Sequence record: MH917278
DNA from: Shigella phage phi2457T
Direction: 5' to 3' (one strand)
DNA length: 50,219 bases
Below are positions 11,658 to 18,022 of this stretch, one piece after another (position 1 is the stretch's first letter; every line of letters begins with the position of its first letter). The translations under genes were made by a program, and so were the position numbers. A model generated the notes under the pieces. The model had not been told where the DNA came from and did no database searches. It saw only the letters and a list, made by a program, of their open reading frames with translations.

Positions 11658-11711
11658 TAAATGAGATATAATCAAGGCTGTCAATTGACGGCCTTTTTTA
11701 TTGGAGGAAAC

Positions 11712-12995
11712 ATGAAAATTGTTAAGCATGATGGATATAACGATATCTTTAACGGCGGTGCGGACGGCTCACCTAAGCCATTCTTTATGTCCGACGCATC
11801 ATATCACGTCGGCTCTTTCTACAACGATAACGCCACAGCAAAGAGGATTGTAGACGTAATACCTGAAGAAATGGTTACGGCTGGATTTAAAATATCAGGC
11901 GTCAAGGATGAAAAAGAGTTCAAATCTCTGTGGGATAGTTACAAAATTGATCCTAGCTTGGTTGATGTTCTTTGCTGGGCGCGCCTATACGGTGGGGCGG
12001 CTATTGTAGCAATCATTAAAGACAACAGAATGCTAACCAGTCCAGTTAAACCTGGAGCTAAACTTGAAGGTGTGCGTGTTTACGATAGGTTCGCAATTAC
12101 AATCGAAAAAAGAGTAACCAATGCGCGATCGCCTCGCTATGGTGAGCCTGAGATCTATAAGGTGTCGCCCGGTGACAACATTCAACCTTACTTAATCCAC
12201 CACACGAGAATTTTCATTGCTGATGGTGAGAGAGTTACCCCTCAGATGCGGAAGCAGAATCAGGGGTGGGGTGCTTCAGTTTTGAATAAGTCACTGATTG
12301 ATGCAATCTGCGACTACGACTATTGCGAATCACTTGCGACTCAGATCCTGCGGCGTAAGCAACAGGCGGTATGGAAGGTCAAAGGTCTTGCCGAAATGTG
12401 CGATGATGACGATGCTCAGTATGCTGCGCGCCTGCGACTTGCTCAGGTTGATGACAACTCCGGAGTAGGCCGTGCGATCGGTATCGATGCTGAGACGGAA
12501 GAATACGATGTTCTAAACTCTGATATCAGCGGAGTGCCTGAGTTCTTATCGAGCAAGATGGATCGTATTGTTTCCCTTTCCGGGATTCATGAGATTATCA
12601 TCAAAAATAAGAACGTAGGCGGCGTATCAGCGAGTCAAAACACAGCACTTGAGACTTTCTATAAGCTGGTAGATCGTAAGCGTGAGGAAGATTACAGGCC
12701 TCTTCTTGAGTTCTTGCTGCCGTTCATTGTTGACGAGCAAGAGTGGTCGATCGAGTTCGAGCCTTTATCCGTTCCGAGCAAGAAAGAGGAATCAGAGATC
12801 ACGAAGAATAACGTTGATTCGGTTACGAAAGCTATCACTGAGCAAATCATCGATCTGGAAGAAGCTCGCGACACGTTGCGATCTATTGCCCCTGAGTTCA
12901 AACTCAAGGATGGTAATAACATCAACATTCGCGAACCTGAAGAAACAACCGAACCGGAACCGGGATTAGGGGAGAAGTTAGAAGATGAAAATTAA
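11712..12995 (+). CDS. portal protein
   Basis: ~427 aa ORF directly after terminase; internal ATG with SD ggagga; acidic C-terminus; synteny. Confidence 0.8.
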   Translation: MKIVKHDGYNDIFNGGADGSPKPFFMSDASYHVGSFYNDNATAKRIVDVIPEEMVTAGFKISGVKDEKEFKSLWDSYKIDPSLVDVLCWARLYGGAAIVAIIKDNRMLTSPVKPGAKLEGVRVYDRFAITIEKRVTNARSPRYGEPEIYKVSPGDNIQPYLIHHTRIFIADGERVTPQMRKQNQGWGASVLNKSLIDAICDYDYCESLATQILRRKQQAVWKVKGLAEMCDDDDAQYAARLRLAQVDDNSGVGRAIGIDAETEEYDVLNSDISGVPEFLSSKMDRIVSLSGIHEIIIKNKNVGGVSASQNTALETFYKLVDRKREEDYRPLLEFLLPFIVDEQEWSIEFEPLSVPSKKEESEITKNNVDSVTKAITEQIIDLEEARDTLRSIAPEFKLKDGNNINIREPEETTEPEPGLGEKLEDEN

Positions 12996-13746
12996 TGGCG
13001 TTGCTACTCAGTGGCGCTATCCTGAAATGAGCGAGCGCGCAATGTCGCGCTCCCTACAGGATATTGCAGCCAAACTAACTGAAAAAATGCGTGACGAATT
13101 AAAGCTGATGAAATTTGATGCTACCGACGAAGAGATAGATCAGGCAGAAAGGTCATTGCTTAATTACGTTGAATCACTCATCGCGCCGATTATCGGTTCT
13201 CTATCATCCGTTGCGCTCACGATCTATAAATTCAACTCTAAGCAGTGGCTGCGCATCGCTCGCAATGCTGGAGGTAAGAAGAATCAAGCCGTGATGCTAC
13301 TTGCCCTGATTGGTCCTACCGCTGCCGAAAGTTGGTACTCAGGACAATATAATCTGTGGCGATCGCAGGTGACTACTTCTATCAGGAAATTTGCCGCCAA
13401 CATGGTTACTGATTTCACTGATAAACTTCGTGCGGCATCCGGTCAGGGCAAAAGCAAGGATTTTGTTGTTGAGCTTGCTAAGGAGCGATTTGGTATTTAC
13501 CGGAATTGGGCCAAAAATAGAGCATCGGGAATTGTCGGAACCTGGAACAGTAGACTAATGCGGCAGCGCATAAAAGACGCTGGTGTCTCTTATTATTTCT
13601 GGCGAGGGGTGATGGATTTACGCGAACGTGAAAAACATGTAAGATGGGAAGGTAAGCGTATAGCGGTAGATTCCGATCACGTATTTCCGGGTGAAGAATA
13701 CAATTGCCGCTGTTGGGCTGTTCCAGACTTTTCCACAGGAGATTAA
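12985..13746 (+). CDS. head morphogenesis protein (SPP1 gp7 / Mu F-like minor capsid)
   Basis: 253 aa after portal; conserved C-terminal region ending ...VFPGEEYNCRCWAV typical of this family. Confidence 0.65.
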   Translation: MKINGVATQWRYPEMSERAMSRSLQDIAAKLTEKMRDELKLMKFDATDEEIDQAERSLLNYVESLIAPIIGSLSSVALTIYKFNSKQWLRIARNAGGKKNQAVMLLALIGPTAAESWYSGQYNLWRSQVTTSIRKFAANMVTDFTDKLRAASGQGKSKDFVVELAKERFGIYRNWAKNRASGIVGTWNSRLMRQRIKDAGVSYYFWRGVMDLREREKHVRWEGKRIAVDSDHVFPGEEYNCRCWAVPDFSTGD

Positions 13747-13748
13747 AA

Positions 13749-14861
13749 ATGAAGGCAAAGCAAAGATTCGATTCAGTAAAAATCAAGGCGCACTTTGATG
13801 ATAATGGTTTTTTGGTTGACCGCCCCATTGTGGCACGAATCGGTGCTCAGGTTTACAAGACTCCCCACGGCGATCGAGTTGAGTTCCGTCCGGCGTCCGA
13901 AGTTTTCAAGCAAGATTCCTTGCAAAGTTTTGCAGGCAAGCCGATCACAGTCGGTCACGTAACGGTAACCCCCCAAAATGCTAAGGACGTTGTTGTAGGA
14001 TCGTGCGCTGGCGCTGGTATTGCTTCAGGTGTTGGAGTTGAAGTCCCTTTGAGCATTTACAGCGACTACGCGATCAGCAAGGCTAAAGCAAAAGAAGCTG
14101 GTGAATTATCTGTTGGCTACACGTCAGTAGATATTGATAAACCGGGATGGGGTTCAAATGAGACTGGAGAATATATCTTCGAAGAGGATATGAAACAGGA
14201 CGAAGAGCCGCCTGAAGGTTGGGTTAAATTCGATGCTGTACAGACTAATATCAAGGTCAACCATATTGCTCTGGTTTTTAAAGGTCGCGCGGGAATTGCC
14301 AAATTAAATCTTGATGCTGAGCAGGAATTCCCGTATGATAATAACGTTCAATTAACTAACGAGGACAAGCAAATGAAGAAAATTAAGATCGACTCAGTTG
14401 ATGTGGAAGTAACCGAAGATGTTGCGAACCATATCGAAAAATTAACCGCGCAGATTGCCACCATTCAGGGCAAAGCTGACGGCTTCGAAGCTGAGCGCGA
14501 TGCGCTGAAGGTTAAGGTTGACTCCCTGCCGGAACTGGTGAAGGCCGAAGTAGAGAAGCAAAAAGCTGACGCCGCAGCGCGTGCTGAAGTAACCGCAGTA
14601 GCGGAAACCGCAGGCGTTAAGCATGATGGTCTTGATATCAAAGACGTTAAGGTCGCTGTTGTCAAAGCTATGCTTGATAAAGATGTTAGCGAAAAATCAG
14701 ACGCATATATCGACGCTATGTTTGATGTTGCTAAGGATTCTGATATTATGGCTATTCAGCGTAAGGCGGTAAAAGGCGATTCTATCGAAGGTGGTAAGCC
14801 GGAAGAGAAAAACGACGCCGCGCCTGTTACGCCAAATTCACGTTTAAGCAAAGTAATGTAA
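13749..14861 (+). CDS. putative scaffolding / prohead core protein
   Basis: Position between head morphogenesis and capsid genes; C-terminal half Ala/Lys/Glu-rich and predicted coiled coil. Confidence 0.5.
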   Translation: MKAKQRFDSVKIKAHFDDNGFLVDRPIVARIGAQVYKTPHGDRVEFRPASEVFKQDSLQSFAGKPITVGHVTVTPQNAKDVVVGSCAGAGIASGVGVEVPLSIYSDYAISKAKAKEAGELSVGYTSVDIDKPGWGSNETGEYIFEEDMKQDEEPPEGWVKFDAVQTNIKVNHIALVFKGRAGIAKLNLDAEQEFPYDNNVQLTNEDKQMKKIKIDSVDVEVTEDVANHIEKLTAQIATIQGKADGFEAERDALKVKVDSLPELVKAEVEKQKADAAARAEVTAVAETAGVKHDGLDIKDVKVAVVKAMLDKDVSEKSDAYIDAMFDVAKDSDIMAIQRKAVKGDSIEGGKPEEKNDAAPVTPNSRLSKVM

Positions 14862-14872
14862 GGGGAAATATC

Positions 14873-15349
14873 ATGGCACAGATTAATGCATCTTATCAGC
14901 GAGACATGGCTATTGCGCTTCCGGGTATGGTTGCGGATACTTCGAAGTATAATATTGATGGCGCTTGCGTCGTTAACGAAGGTGATGTTTTTGTTGGCGC
15001 CGCCGTACAGGTTGTTCAAGCCCAAGCCGTTGATGGCCATAAATTGGTTAAGGCTATGGAATCGTCTAAAGTGCCGTATGGCGTAGCTATTCGATCTCAC
15101 TGGCAGACTGTGAATAAAGATAATCAGATGATTTACGAAGATGGCGGCGCTATCAACGTGATTACCTCCGGTAGAGTTTGGATGCTTTCCAAATCAGAAG
15201 AGGCGCCAACTTTCGGGACCGCTGTAAAACTTGACGTTGACGGTCAAGAGAAATCTGACGGTACGATCGAAACCACTTGGACCTACGCTGGCGGTTGGAC
15301 CAAATATAAAGACATTCAGCTTGTTGAAGTTCAGTTGCATCAACTGTAA
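14873..15349 (+). CDS. capsid-associated structural protein, paralogue A (decoration-like)
   Basis: Shares N-terminal domain with the next gene (DTSKYNIDGACV / DTSNYNIDGSCV; PYGVAIRS / PYGIAFRS); located before major capsid. Confidence 0.5.
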   Translation: MAQINASYQRDMAIALPGMVADTSKYNIDGACVVNEGDVFVGAAVQVVQAQAVDGHKLVKAMESSKVPYGVAIRSHWQTVNKDNQMIYEDGGAINVITSGRVWMLSKSEEAPTFGTAVKLDVDGQEKSDGTIETTWTYAGGWTKYKDIQLVEVQLHQL

Positions 15350-15364
15350 TTAGTGTTTAATATG

Positions 15365-15396
15365 GGGACTATCCTTTTTGGATAGTCCTTTTTTTA
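15365..15396 (+). terminator. rho-independent terminator
   Basis: Hairpin ggactatcc/ggatagtcc followed by TTTTTTT. Confidence 0.6.
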
Positions 15397-15409
15397 TGGA
15401 GAAAATACT

Positions 15410-16177
15410 ATGCCTTACGAAAATTTAATGTTACGCCCGGCGTGCCCTGGTAATCTTTCGGATACTTCAAACTACAATATTGATGGATCTTGTGTTGCTA
15501 AAGGTGATATTGAGTTCGGCGCTGCTGTTAAAGTTGTCGGTATTGTTGACGGAGTTAAGGTTGTTTCCACGCTTACTGATGGTGCAACACCTTACGGAAT
15601 CGCTTTCCGTTCCCAATATGAACACCTGAGCGGTAAAATCCTCGACGGTGAAGTTTGCAACGTCGTTTCTCATGGTCGAATGTGGACGCTCACTTCTCTT
15701 GATGAAGCTCCGGCCTTATTCTCAAAGTTGCAATTTGGATCTGGTGGTGTTGTTACTGGTAGCTCTGGTTCCGTAGGTTGGACATTTGCTGGTGGGTTTG
15801 TTAAGCACGAGGACGGGTACATTATTGAGGTACAGGTTAAGCGAAATGCCTTCATTGTTCCACCTCCACCCCCTCCTGTGGTTCTTGTTGAGTCTGCGAC
15901 GATTACAACTAACAAGGAGAGTCCTCAGCCAAACAATGCACCTGTGCAATTTAACGTTGCTGTAAAACCTGACAACGCCACCGATAAAACTGGCCTGTGG
16001 TCTGTTGATGCTGAAAATATTGCGACAATAGATCCAAAATCTGGCGTTCTTACTCCAATTGGTGGAGATGCAGCAGGTAGCGTAAGCGTAAATTGGACGG
16101 CTAACGATTCCAGCAAAACTAAAGAATCGATCACTTATGTCTTTGATGCTGTGCCAGCCGAAGAAGAAGAGTCATAA
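15410..16177 (+). CDS. capsid-associated structural protein, paralogue B, with poly-Pro linker and C-terminal Ig-like domain
   Basis: N-terminal domain paralogous to 14873..15349; PPPPPPVVLV linker; C-terminal ~90 aa resembles bacterial Ig-like (Big_2-type) domain. Confidence 0.55.
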   Translation: MPYENLMLRPACPGNLSDTSNYNIDGSCVAKGDIEFGAAVKVVGIVDGVKVVSTLTDGATPYGIAFRSQYEHLSGKILDGEVCNVVSHGRMWTLTSLDEAPALFSKLQFGSGGVVTGSSGSVGWTFAGGFVKHEDGYIIEVQVKRNAFIVPPPPPPVVLVESATITTNKESPQPNNAPVQFNVAVKPDNATDKTGLWSVDAENIATIDPKSGVLTPIGGDAAGSVSVNWTANDSSKTKESITYVFDAVPAEEEES

Positions 16178-16196
16178 CACAAAAACACTTTGACGC

Positions 16197-16215
16197 TTTA
16201 ACAAAAAGTGCTATT
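16197..16215 (-). promoter_or_regulatory. conserved intergenic element copy, inverted relative to local transcription
   Basis: tttaacaaaaagtgctatt (reverse complement AATAGCACTTTTTGTTAAA) upstream of major capsid gene. Confidence 0.4.
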
Positions 16216-16220
16216 ATTGA

Positions 16221-16248
16221 AGCCGTGAACATAATCACGGCTTTTTTT
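16221..16248 (+). terminator. rho-independent terminator
   Basis: Hairpin agccgtga/tcacggct followed by TTTTTTT. Confidence 0.6.
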
Positions 16249-16269
16249 ATTAACTAAGGAGAAGTAATC

Positions 16270-17229
16270 ATGACTACTAAAAAATTTGATGAAGCAGATA
16301 AAAGCAATATTGAAATGTACCTGATCCAAGCTGGCGTAAAACAGGATGCAGCAGCAACTATGGGTATCTGGACCGCTCAGGAGCTACACCGCATCAAGAG
16401 CCAGTCTTACGAAGAGGACTACCCGGCAGGATCTGCTCTCCGTGTATTCCCGGTTACAACCGATCTCTCTCCGACCGACAAGACGTTTGAGTACATGACC
16501 TTTGATAAGGTTGGTACTGCGCAGATTATCGCTGACTATACCGATGACCTGCCTCTGGTTGATGCGCTTGGCACTTCTGAGTTCGGAAAGGTGTTCCGCT
16601 TGGGTAACGCGTACCTGATTTCAATCGACGAAATCAAAGCAGGTCAGGCAACTGGTCGACCGCTGTCAACCCGCAAGGCAAGTGCGTGTCAGCTAGCGCA
16701 TGACCAACTGGTTAACCGTCTGGTGTTCAAAGGCTCCGCACCGCACAAGATCGTGTCTGTGTTCAACCATCCGAACATCACCAAAATTACCTCAGGTAAG
16801 TGGATTGATGGAGTTAGCCAAAAACCAGAAACGGCTGAAGCTGAACTAACTCAGGCCATCGAAACCATCGAGACGATTACTCGCGGACAGCACCGAGCAA
16901 CCAATATTCTGATCCCGCCGTCCATGCGTAAGGTTTTGGCTATTCGTATGCCTGAAACCACTATGTCTTATCTGGACTATTTCAAGTCTCAGAATGCTGG
17001 TATCGAAATTGACTCTATCGCAGAACTTGAAGATATCGATGGCGCTGGAACTAAAGGCGTGCTGGTGTACGAAAAGAATCCGATGAATATGTCCATCGAG
17101 ATCCCGGAAGCATTTAACATGCTGCCAGCACAGCCGAAAGATCTGCACTTCAAAGTGCCTTGCACCTCCAAGTGTACTGGCCTTACAATTTATCGTCCGA
17201 TGACTATTGTCTTAATCACTGGCGTGTAA
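16270..17229 (+). CDS. major capsid protein
   Basis: 319 aa; strong SD aaggagaa; position after scaffold/decoration genes and before connector genes; flanked by terminators. Confidence 0.75.
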   Translation: MTTKKFDEADKSNIEMYLIQAGVKQDAAATMGIWTAQELHRIKSQSYEEDYPAGSALRVFPVTTDLSPTDKTFEYMTFDKVGTAQIIADYTDDLPLVDALGTSEFGKVFRLGNAYLISIDEIKAGQATGRPLSTRKASACQLAHDQLVNRLVFKGSAPHKIVSVFNHPNITKITSGKWIDGVSQKPETAEAELTQAIETIETITRGQHRATNILIPPSMRKVLAIRMPETTMSYLDYFKSQNAGIEIDSIAELEDIDGAGTKGVLVYEKNPMNMSIEIPEAFNMLPAQPKDLHFKVPCTSKCTGLTIYRPMTIVLITGV

Positions 17230-17236
17230 TATTATA

Positions 17237-17263
17237 GGGACTAACTTAGTTGGTCCCTTTTTT
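17237..17263 (+). terminator. rho-independent terminator
   Basis: Hairpin gggacta...tggtccc followed by TTTTTT. Confidence 0.55.
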
Positions 17264-17278
17264 ATTGGAGAAATCAAA

Positions 17279-17566
17279 ATGGCTAAAGAAAAAACTGTTG
17301 TTATCGTAAACGTTGGTGTGGCGCTTCAGATGTTCCGTCTTGAAGATGGCTCATTCGCAAAGGTTCTCCCGGATGAAGAGGTGACACTCCCAGCATCCGC
17401 ACTTGAATTGCCTGGGCTGCGTTGCTTGATTGCTCGCGAAGAAATCGAAGTAAAAGACGACAGTGCCACCAACCGGAAAATCCGCGCAGAGATGGCTAAA
17501 CTTAAAAAGCCTGATCCGTGGGATAGTAAAAGTGTTAAAGAACTTGAGGACGGCGGCGAATATTAA
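17279..17566 (+). CDS. hypothetical protein (95 aa), terminator-flanked
   Basis: ORF track; SD ggagaaa; terminators on both sides. Confidence 0.4.
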   Translation: MAKEKTVVIVNVGVALQMFRLEDGSFAKVLPDEEVTLPASALELPGLRCLIAREEIEVKDDSATNRKIRAEMAKLKKPDPWDSKSVKELEDGGEY

Positions 17567-17570
17567 TCAT

Positions 17571-17598
17571 CAAGGCGCTCATGTAGCGCCTTTTTTTT
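17571..17598 (+). terminator. rho-independent terminator
   Basis: Hairpin ggcgct/agcgcc followed by TTTTTTTT. Confidence 0.6.
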
Positions 17599-17611
17599 GT
17601 GGAGTTTGGTT

Positions 17612-18022
17612 ATGAATCAAGAAACTTTAATTTCAGTTGTTGAGCAAGTGCGAAAGCTGGTCCCTGCACTTCGCAAAGTTCCAGATGAAACTCTTTATGC
17701 ATGGGTTGAAATGGCTGAGCTATTCGTATGCCATAAGACCTTCAAAGACGCATACGTCAAAGCGCTTGCTCTTTATGCTTTACATCTTGCTTTCCTTGAC
17801 GGAGCACTAAAAGGTGAAGATGAAGATCTGGAATCTTACTCACGACGCGTTACGTCTTTCTCACTGAGCGGTGAGTTTAGTCAGACTTTTGGTGAGGTTA
17901 CGAAAAACCAGTCAGGAAACACAATGCTTTCGACGCCGTGGGGTAAGATGTTTGAACAACTTAAAGCGCGACGCCGTGGTAGGTTCGCATTAATGACCGG
18001 ACTCCGTGGAGGATGCCACTAA
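17612..18022 (+). CDS. head-tail connector / head completion protein (putative)
   Basis: Position after major capsid; internal ATG with SD; identity by synteny. Confidence 0.45.
   Translation: MNQETLISVVEQVRKLVPALRKVPDETLYAWVEMAELFVCHKTFKDAYVKALALYALHLAFLDGALKGEDEDLESYSRRVTSFSLSGEFSQTFGEVTKNQSGNTMLSTPWGKMFEQLKARRRGRFALMTGLRGGCH

Follow-up and report, generated by a model that had tools for sequence, protein, structure and literature searches.

The Cement Proteins of T1 and Related Phages

Two adjacent genes of Shigella phage phi2457T, which very probably encode capsid cement proteins orthologous to gp49 and gp48 of phage T1, are discussed here. The genes lie in the 50,219-nucleotide sequence of record MH917278, the whole of which is referred to as the window. 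The two proteins share a cement domain, and the second of them carries an additional immunoglobulin (Ig)-like domain.

The capsid of T1 was solved at 3.5 Å by Chen et al. (Viruses 2025, PMC11945409; PDB 9KZJ), who determined that it carries 80 homotrimers of gp49 and 60 further trimers made up of two gp49 subunits and one gp48 subunit. These counts correspond to approximately 360 copies of the short protein (gp49) and 60 copies of the long protein (gp48) per head. Gp49 and residues 2-153 of gp48 adopt a common beta-tulip fold like that of TW1 gp56 and lambda gpD; the N-terminal arm of gp49 reaches the inner surface of the capsid and gp48 is confined to the outside (PMC11945409). Residues 154-255 of gp48 gave rise to weak, flexible density that protrudes from the shell and were modeled with AlphaFold3. 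The authors proposed that this region may aid adsorption and likened it to T5 and phi-crAss001 (PMC11945409).

The same two cement proteins are present in the T1-like phage FCWL1, in the entries 9KMG (capsid) and 9KMH (portal vertex), and 9KMH holds five chains of the long paralog. The study that deposited the FCWL1 capsid structures is reportedly that of Cai et al., 2025 (Structure 33:663, PMID 39914381). A tandem pair between the prohead protease and major capsid genes is annotated in T1, Shfl1, PaulSarasin, and Warwickvirus. In the T1 record (AY216660) the order is protease, "capsid decoration protein" (477 nt), rho-independent terminator, "IgG-domain-containing decoration protein" (768 nt), predicted promoter, terminator, and major capsid protein. 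Both homologs in the record of Warwickvirus mar001J1 are marked "confirmed structural protein by MS" (mass spectrometry), and the genome record of Rtp refers to T1 gp48 and gp49 as "abundant capsid-related proteins".

More distant cement proteins of the same family include E217 gp24, Pam3 gp6 (8HDT), and XM1 gp53 (PF23982, 7KMX), which form beta-tulip trimers at threefold and quasi-threefold axes like the T1 pair. The parts of their published descriptions that were consulted differ from those of the T1 group in that each phage has one homotrimeric cement protein, with a second paralog or an Ig appendage going unreported there; for E217, the T=9 head is described as carrying 180 gp24 copies (PMC10329688). 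Lambda gpD, TW1 gp56, and P74-26 gp87 resemble the pair in fold class, in the use of threefold and quasi-threefold trimer sites and, according to the two capsid papers, in a presumed reinforcement of the filled capsid (PMC11945409, PMC10329688). The gpD-type proteins differ in that no sequence kinship to the cement pair was detected, as the lambda gpD family gave no Pfam match at E values up to 0.1 and no gpD chain was among the PDB sequence matches at E values up to 1. They differ also in that the N-terminal arm of T1 gp49 penetrates to the inner capsid surface and theirs does not (PMC11945409).

The carrier of the Ig domain in the T1 group is a paralog of the trimeric cement protein. T4 Hoc and T5 pb10, in contrast, display Ig-like domains that are thought to give weak adherence, and they do so from unrelated capsid-binding parts at unrelated sites, as monomers at hexamer centers.

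The Paralogous Cement Genes of phi2457T

The genes of phi2457T follow the T1 arrangement. The two cement genes and the gene that follows them are:

14873..15349, + strand: short cement/decoration gene, 158 aa (translation of the open reading frame, ORF)
15410..16177, + strand: long cement gene, 255 aa (ORF translation)
16270..17229, + strand: major capsid gene, encoding the lattice bound by both cement proteins; ortholog of T1 gp47

The short protein is 92.4% identical to T1 gp49 and the long protein is 76.9% identical to T1 gp48, both in gap-free alignments. Sequence searches of the PDB matched the short protein to the chains 9kmg_a/9KZJ named "Decoration protein / cement protein II" (E 1.5e-95) and the long protein to 9kzj_H (E 1e-133) and 9kmh_ak (E 6e-133). 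The likeness to T1 extends to the lengths of 158 and 255 aa, the gene order, the intergenic terminators, the PPPPPP-VVLVESA linker, and the Big_2 domain. The differences lie in a surface loop of the short protein, where a few residues are substituted (MESSKV in phi2457T versus LTTGTT in T1), and in the Ig domain, which in phi2457T is another allele with 54% identity and a synonymous divergence (dS) of 1.7 versus 0.56 for the cement domain. The Ig domain of FCWL1 is, by sequence alignment, of the T1 type and not of the phi2457T type.

Membership in the cement family was determined with the Pfam gathering thresholds, which are 27 bits for PF22758 and 22.8 bits for PF02368. The short and long proteins score 102.2 and 64.0 bits, respectively, against PF22758 (Phage_cement; structural cement protein, E217 gp24/Pam3 gp6) and both exceed the threshold. 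The matches span nearly the whole 146-position profile, and in the long paralog they cover residues 8-143. Both proteins also pass the threshold of the XM1 gp53 model (PF23982), and both belong to phrog_1989 in PHROGs (short protein, E 1e-65).

An AlphaFold2 model of the long paralog, built with a 29-sequence alignment, has an overall predicted local distance difference test score (pLDDT) of 86.4, with values of ~80-93 in the N-terminal domain, 93-96 at residues 160-250, and a drop to 74-76 in the linker. Foldseek comparison of the N-terminal domain with the FCWL1 and T1 cement chains in the PDB gave TMt values of 0.78-0.91, which places the domain in the beta-tulip fold. The best chains were those of FCWL1 gp29 (9kmh_ak, TMt 0.91, 87% identity) and T1 gp48 (9kzj_H, TMt 0.88). 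The same domain also matched the short-paralog chains 9kmg_a/b (TMt 0.80-0.84) and 9kzj_I, and the more distant matches included Pam3 8hdt_G and XM1 7kmx_a.

A sequence-only reading of this DNA had described the two ORFs as tandem paralogs with a shared N-terminal domain, separated by a terminator and placed just before the major capsid gene, and had proposed that they arose by duplication of a decoration protein, with an Ig-like module presented on the capsid surface by one of the copies. The coordinates that it gave for both ORFs are exact, and the motifs that it cited, DTSKYNIDGACV/DTSNYNIDGSCV, PYGVAIRS/PYGIAFRS, GRVWMLS/GRMWTLT, and PPPPPPVVLV, were all found in the translations. The paralogy is borne out by BLASTP (39% identity and 63% positives over 144 aa, E 4e-30). 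The position of the pair is as described, since the next gene encodes a major capsid protein (MCP; PF09950, 212.9 bits; phrog_264, E 3e-103; 97.5% identity to T1 gp47). The intergenic terminator is an 11-pair stem with a T-run that is stable relative to shuffled sequences. A duplicated decoration protein with one Ig-displaying copy is what cryo-electron microscopy (cryo-EM) of the T1 orthologs (92% and 77% identity) has revealed. That reading had also suggested looking for both proteins in purified virions and for an Ig-like fold by domain search. The orthologs of T1 and FCWL1 are present in virions by cryo-EM, as are, in a second subfamily, the Warwickvirus mar001J1 homologs by the MS annotation, and the domain search matched PF02368. 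The C-terminal domain of the second ORF scores above the cut-off for Big_2, is modeled with confidence as a beta-sandwich, and superposes on solved Ig domains. The sequence-only reading is thus supported, and what it describes is already established knowledge. One detail goes beyond it: in T1 the paralogs do not decorate the capsid separately and instead co-assemble as 1:2 heterotrimers at 60 sites.

The region at 14600-16400 is 99.8% identical to Shigella phages Sfin-2/4/5/6 and 85% identical to T1 by megablast, and the first 25 kb of the window are 98% identical to Sfin-2/4/6. The whole window can be taken as an essentially complete genome of a Tunavirus (T1-like siphophage, Drexlerviridae). 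Genes for the terminase large subunit, the portal, a Mu-F-like head morphogenesis protein, and the prohead protease/scaffold lie 5' of the cement pair (Pfam, PHROGs).

The Ig-like Domain and Its Evolution

The long gene can be divided into four parts:

15410..15859, + strand: residues 1-150 of the long paralog, the cement (beta-tulip) domain; orthologous to the N-terminal domain of T1 gp48
15860..15904, + strand: linker, residues 151-165; PPPPPP (15860-15877) followed by VVLVESATI
15896..16153, + strand: Big_2 Ig-like domain; residues 163-238 by Pfam, modeled beta-sandwich ~162-246
16154..16177, + strand: acidic C-terminal tail (PAEEEES) and stop codon, from the translation; pLDDT <50 at residues 253-255

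The Big_2 match (PF02368) has a score of 29.1 bits and an E value of 9.8e-07, and aligns residues 163-238 with positions 5-75 of the 79-position profile. The C-terminus also matches several PHROGs "Ig domain" families, including phrog_215 "structural protein with Ig domain" (E 2.6e-12). The modeled domain has seven strands and, in Foldseek superpositions, a root-mean-square deviation of 2.3-2.7 Å over 93-97 columns from the Big_2 domain of 7quz, 1.8 Å over 96 columns from the Ig domain of T5 pb6 (5ngj), and 2.3 Å from intimin (2zqk). Programmed frameshifting, which is common for phage Ig domains, was considered as the route to the extension and rejected, as the Ig domain is encoded in frame in a separate second gene with its own ribosome-binding site (RBS) and start codon.

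The three segments of the long paralog have diverged from T1 to different extents:

Cement domain versus T1: 88% amino acid identity, dS 0.56
Linker versus T1: 100% amino acid identity and 78% nucleotide identity, dS not meaningful (15 codons)
Ig domain versus T1: 54% amino acid identity, dS 1.71

The ratio of nonsynonymous to synonymous divergence (dN/dS) of the Ig domain versus T1 is 0.19, which corresponds to purifying selection; dN and dS are both raised, and the dS of ~1.7 is near saturation and gives a rough estimate. Positive selection on the Ig domain was rejected on the basis of this ratio, and the pattern is read as allele or cassette exchange. The data indicate mosaic recombination and the existence of two Ig alleles, not positive selection. 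Among the homologs labeled P0011-P0031, the identity to the long paralog is discordant over the segments 1-88/89-150/166-250 (for example, 97/74/56% versus 90/95/59%). This pattern implies recombination breakpoints not only at the linker but also within the cement domain.

The number of Ig domains on the second copy also varies. It is one in Tunavirus, two in tandem in the Warwickvirus type, and zero in some metagenomic T1-like contigs; the linker is conserved across the homologs with one and with two Ig domains. The long paralogs of the Warwickvirus type (L004, L006 at 1501-2514; P0007-P0010, P0033) are 336-339 aa in length with two Big_2 domains after the same proline linker. The tandem pair is kept in L007/L008 (2468-2944, 3001-3498), where the second copy is a 165-aa protein without an Ig domain that ends in an acidic KPAEPEPEPDPDPEPDA-type tail (Pro/Asp/Glu). 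The second-copy proteins P0037/P0038 likewise lack the Ig domain, and only one cement gene is present in Rtp and L009. The long paralog is covered over at least 80% of its length by 179 phage records, and the Ig domain is retained in most Tunavirinae and Tempevirinae. Second copies that lack an Ig domain suggest that the duplication is useful in itself, for site-specific heterotrimers, and not just for carrying the Ig domain.

It is tentatively proposed that the Ig module is an exchangeable cassette with at least two deeply diverged alleles, present in zero, one, or two copies and with mosaic-looking breakpoints, an idea that we consider rather less likely than likely. If it is true and the alleles bind different surface glycans, the module would provide a capsid-borne and recombination-driven form of host or habitat adaptation that is separate from the tail receptor-binding proteins.

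Terminators and Expression

The signals around the cement genes that may influence their expression are:

14860..14866, + strand: Shine-Dalgarno-like AAGGGGA of the short cement gene, read from the sequence; 6 nt before the ATG at 14873
15364..15397, + strand: intrinsic terminator between the paralogs; 11-pair stem (15364-15390, 5 GC pairs) followed by TTTTTTT
15398..15401, + strand: Shine-Dalgarno GGAG of the long cement gene, read from the sequence; kept in 6/6 aligned relatives
16190..16217, + strand: sigma-70-like promoter match, TTGACG, 16 nt, TG-TATTAT; 10/12 with an extended TG, a consensus match only
16219..16250, + strand: intrinsic terminator after the long paralog; 10-pair stem (hairpin 16219-16244) followed by a T-run; T1 annotates one

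The T1 record has an annotated RBS at the equivalent relative place to the AAGGGGA of the short gene. The terminator at 15364-15397 lies in the 60-nt spacer between the cement genes and has a minimum free energy (MFE) of -19.3 kcal/mol (z = -4.7; no shuffle out of 200 matched it). The T1 record annotates a rho-independent terminator in the same place. The hairpin (15364-15390) is kept in T1, in Shfl1, in Warwickvirus with compensatory changes (A-U to G-C and U-A to C-G), and in PaulSarasin (Tempevirinae) with an entirely different stem. Because of the compensatory changes in Warwickvirus and the different stem in PaulSarasin, it is the terminator structure itself that appears to be selected.

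The hairpin of the second terminator (16219-16250) is present in both the MFE and the centroid structures. The promoter match at 16190-16217 is the best within 13600-17700, and the T1 record has a predicted promoter in the corresponding place. The match ends two bases before the 5' arm of the 16219-16244 hairpin, and the T1 record has the same promoter-then-terminator arrangement. A transcript initiated ~7 nt past the -10 element would have its 5' end within the stem, so it could escape the second terminator.

Nearly all genes of the head module are followed by a terminator-like hairpin, at 15364-15397 (short cement), 16219-16250 (long cement), 17236-17264 (MCP), and 17572-17600 (DUF7444). Seven terminator-like sites were found within 13600-17700 versus 4.2 +/- 2.0 in shuffled sequences, and the four strong ones are all intergenic and on the + strand. 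This distribution suggests stepwise transcriptional attenuation, or perhaps stabilization of mRNA 3' ends, across the late operon.

Proposed Function and Alternative Explanations

The explanation that we favor with high confidence, taken as a whole, is that the two ORFs encode the orthologs of the T1 gp49 and gp48 cement proteins, with one copy displaying the Ig domain and with presumed attenuation between the genes. By this account the short protein of phi2457T would form 80 homotrimers and contribute two of the three subunits of 60 more, in which the long paralog would be the third. The trimers would act as beta-tulip clamps at the junctions of three capsomers, as shown for the orthologs, with the N-terminal arm of the short protein reaching into the shell and the long paralog sitting on the surface only. 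The six-proline run may serve as a stiff spacer that holds the Ig domain off the shell as a flexible appendage. The appendage most likely binds carbohydrates on cells or in the environment, weakly and reversibly, as proposed for other phage Ig-like domains; for the T1 group, an analogy drawn in the T1 paper suggests this putative binding of glycans or cell surfaces (PMC11945409). Since relatives keep the pair with zero or two Ig domains, the Ig domain is probably an accessory that is dispensable for capsid integrity. At the level of transcription, the terminator at 15364-15397 would cause the long paralog to be expressed less than the short one, which would fit the ~6:1 subunit ratio.

Several points weigh against parts of this explanation. 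The structural assignment of the phi2457T pair is transferred from orthologs that are 77-92% identical, although nothing was found to contradict it. The C-terminus of T1 gp48 was too flexible to build and was modeled with AlphaFold3, and the adsorption role is a suggestion by the authors (PMC11945409). The effect of the terminator on relative expression is deduced from sequence only. The MCP, which is the most abundant protein, lies 3' of two terminators and has to be made by read-through or from the promoter-like site at 16190-16217; attenuation is therefore not the sole control.

A possible alternative, though one we consider doubtful as the main explanation, is that the long paralog is mainly a site-specific structural subunit that breaks the symmetry of the trimers at 60 quasi-threefold positions (for example, next to the vertices), with the Ig domain being an optional add-on. 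The T1 long paralog is indeed found at exactly 60 sites as part of a 1:2 heterotrimer (PMC11945409), and the five long-paralog chains in the FCWL1 entry 9KMH would be compatible with one per vertex-proximal trimer, an arrangement that with five at each of 12 vertices would make up the 60. The 165-aa second copies of L007/L008 and the proteins P0037/P0038, which have only a short acidic Pro/Asp/Glu tail in place of the Ig domain, fit the same idea. Such a role complements the cement-and-display explanation more than it excludes it. An Ig domain of little consequence is, however, hard to reconcile with its purifying selection (dN/dS 0.19), its retention in most Tunavirinae and Tempevirinae, and its duplication in Warwickvirus, all of which speak for some function of the domain.

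It is unlikely that what the Ig domain does is to act in head assembly (for example, as an intramolecular chaperone, or by restricting each trimer to one long subunit as a spacer) rather than in binding outside the virion. The strict 1:2 stoichiometry of the heterotrimer (PMC11945409) does need explaining, and steric hindrance by a bulky domain at the end of a stiff stalk of prolines could keep the copies at one per trimer. Second paralogs without an Ig domain are nonetheless found in otherwise similar gene clusters, and the identities to T1 of 54% for the Ig domain versus 88% for the cement domain and 100% for the linker fit a surface-exposed, environment-facing module better than they fit an assembly interface. 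Finally, the idea that the likeness of the two ORFs is due to chance or low complexity and that the second ORF encodes something other than a capsid protein has nothing in its favor and can be dismissed, as the BLASTP E value is 4e-30, both proteins score above the cut-off for one curated Pfam model and match PDB chains, and both orthologs are built into cryo-EM capsid maps.

Annotation and Neighboring Genes

The main value of this analysis is correct annotation, and it is of little importance beyond that. Both genes carry the label "hypothetical protein" in most of their close GenBank relatives, and both can confidently be called capsid cement proteins, the first of the gp49 type and the second of the Ig-bearing gp48 type. 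A gene in the matched stretch of PQ571291 and the cement gene of NC_049829, NC_049821, and MN850572 are annotated as "putative zonula occludens toxin". This label looks like a propagated mis-annotation, because the sequence is that of a PF22758 cement protein.

The additions to what is known are minor and consist of the divergent, mosaic-looking Ig module, its presence in zero, one, or two copies, and the terminator that is kept through compensatory changes. The pair is a tidy example of a duplicated decoration protein that has gained a display domain. With its variable sequence, its invariant polyproline stalk, and its 60 defined positions on the capsid, the Ig module would lend itself naturally to phage display or to the engineering of T1-like phages, and the question of the ligand of the Ig domain has already been raised by the published structures.

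Directly 3' of the major capsid gene, the ortholog of T1 gp46 is a small 95-aa gene at 17279-17566 that matches DUF7444 and phrog_2716 (E 4e-31 and 3e-35) and keeps its position across Drexlerviridae. On the 5' side, the starts of the ORFs at 13704-14861 (protease) and 11661-12995 (portal) are probably too far upstream when judged against T1, in which the protease and portal genes are 1113 nt and 1284 nt in length. The likely starts are the ATG at 13746 (MKAKQRF...) for the protease and the ATG at 11712 (MKIVKHDG...) for the portal.

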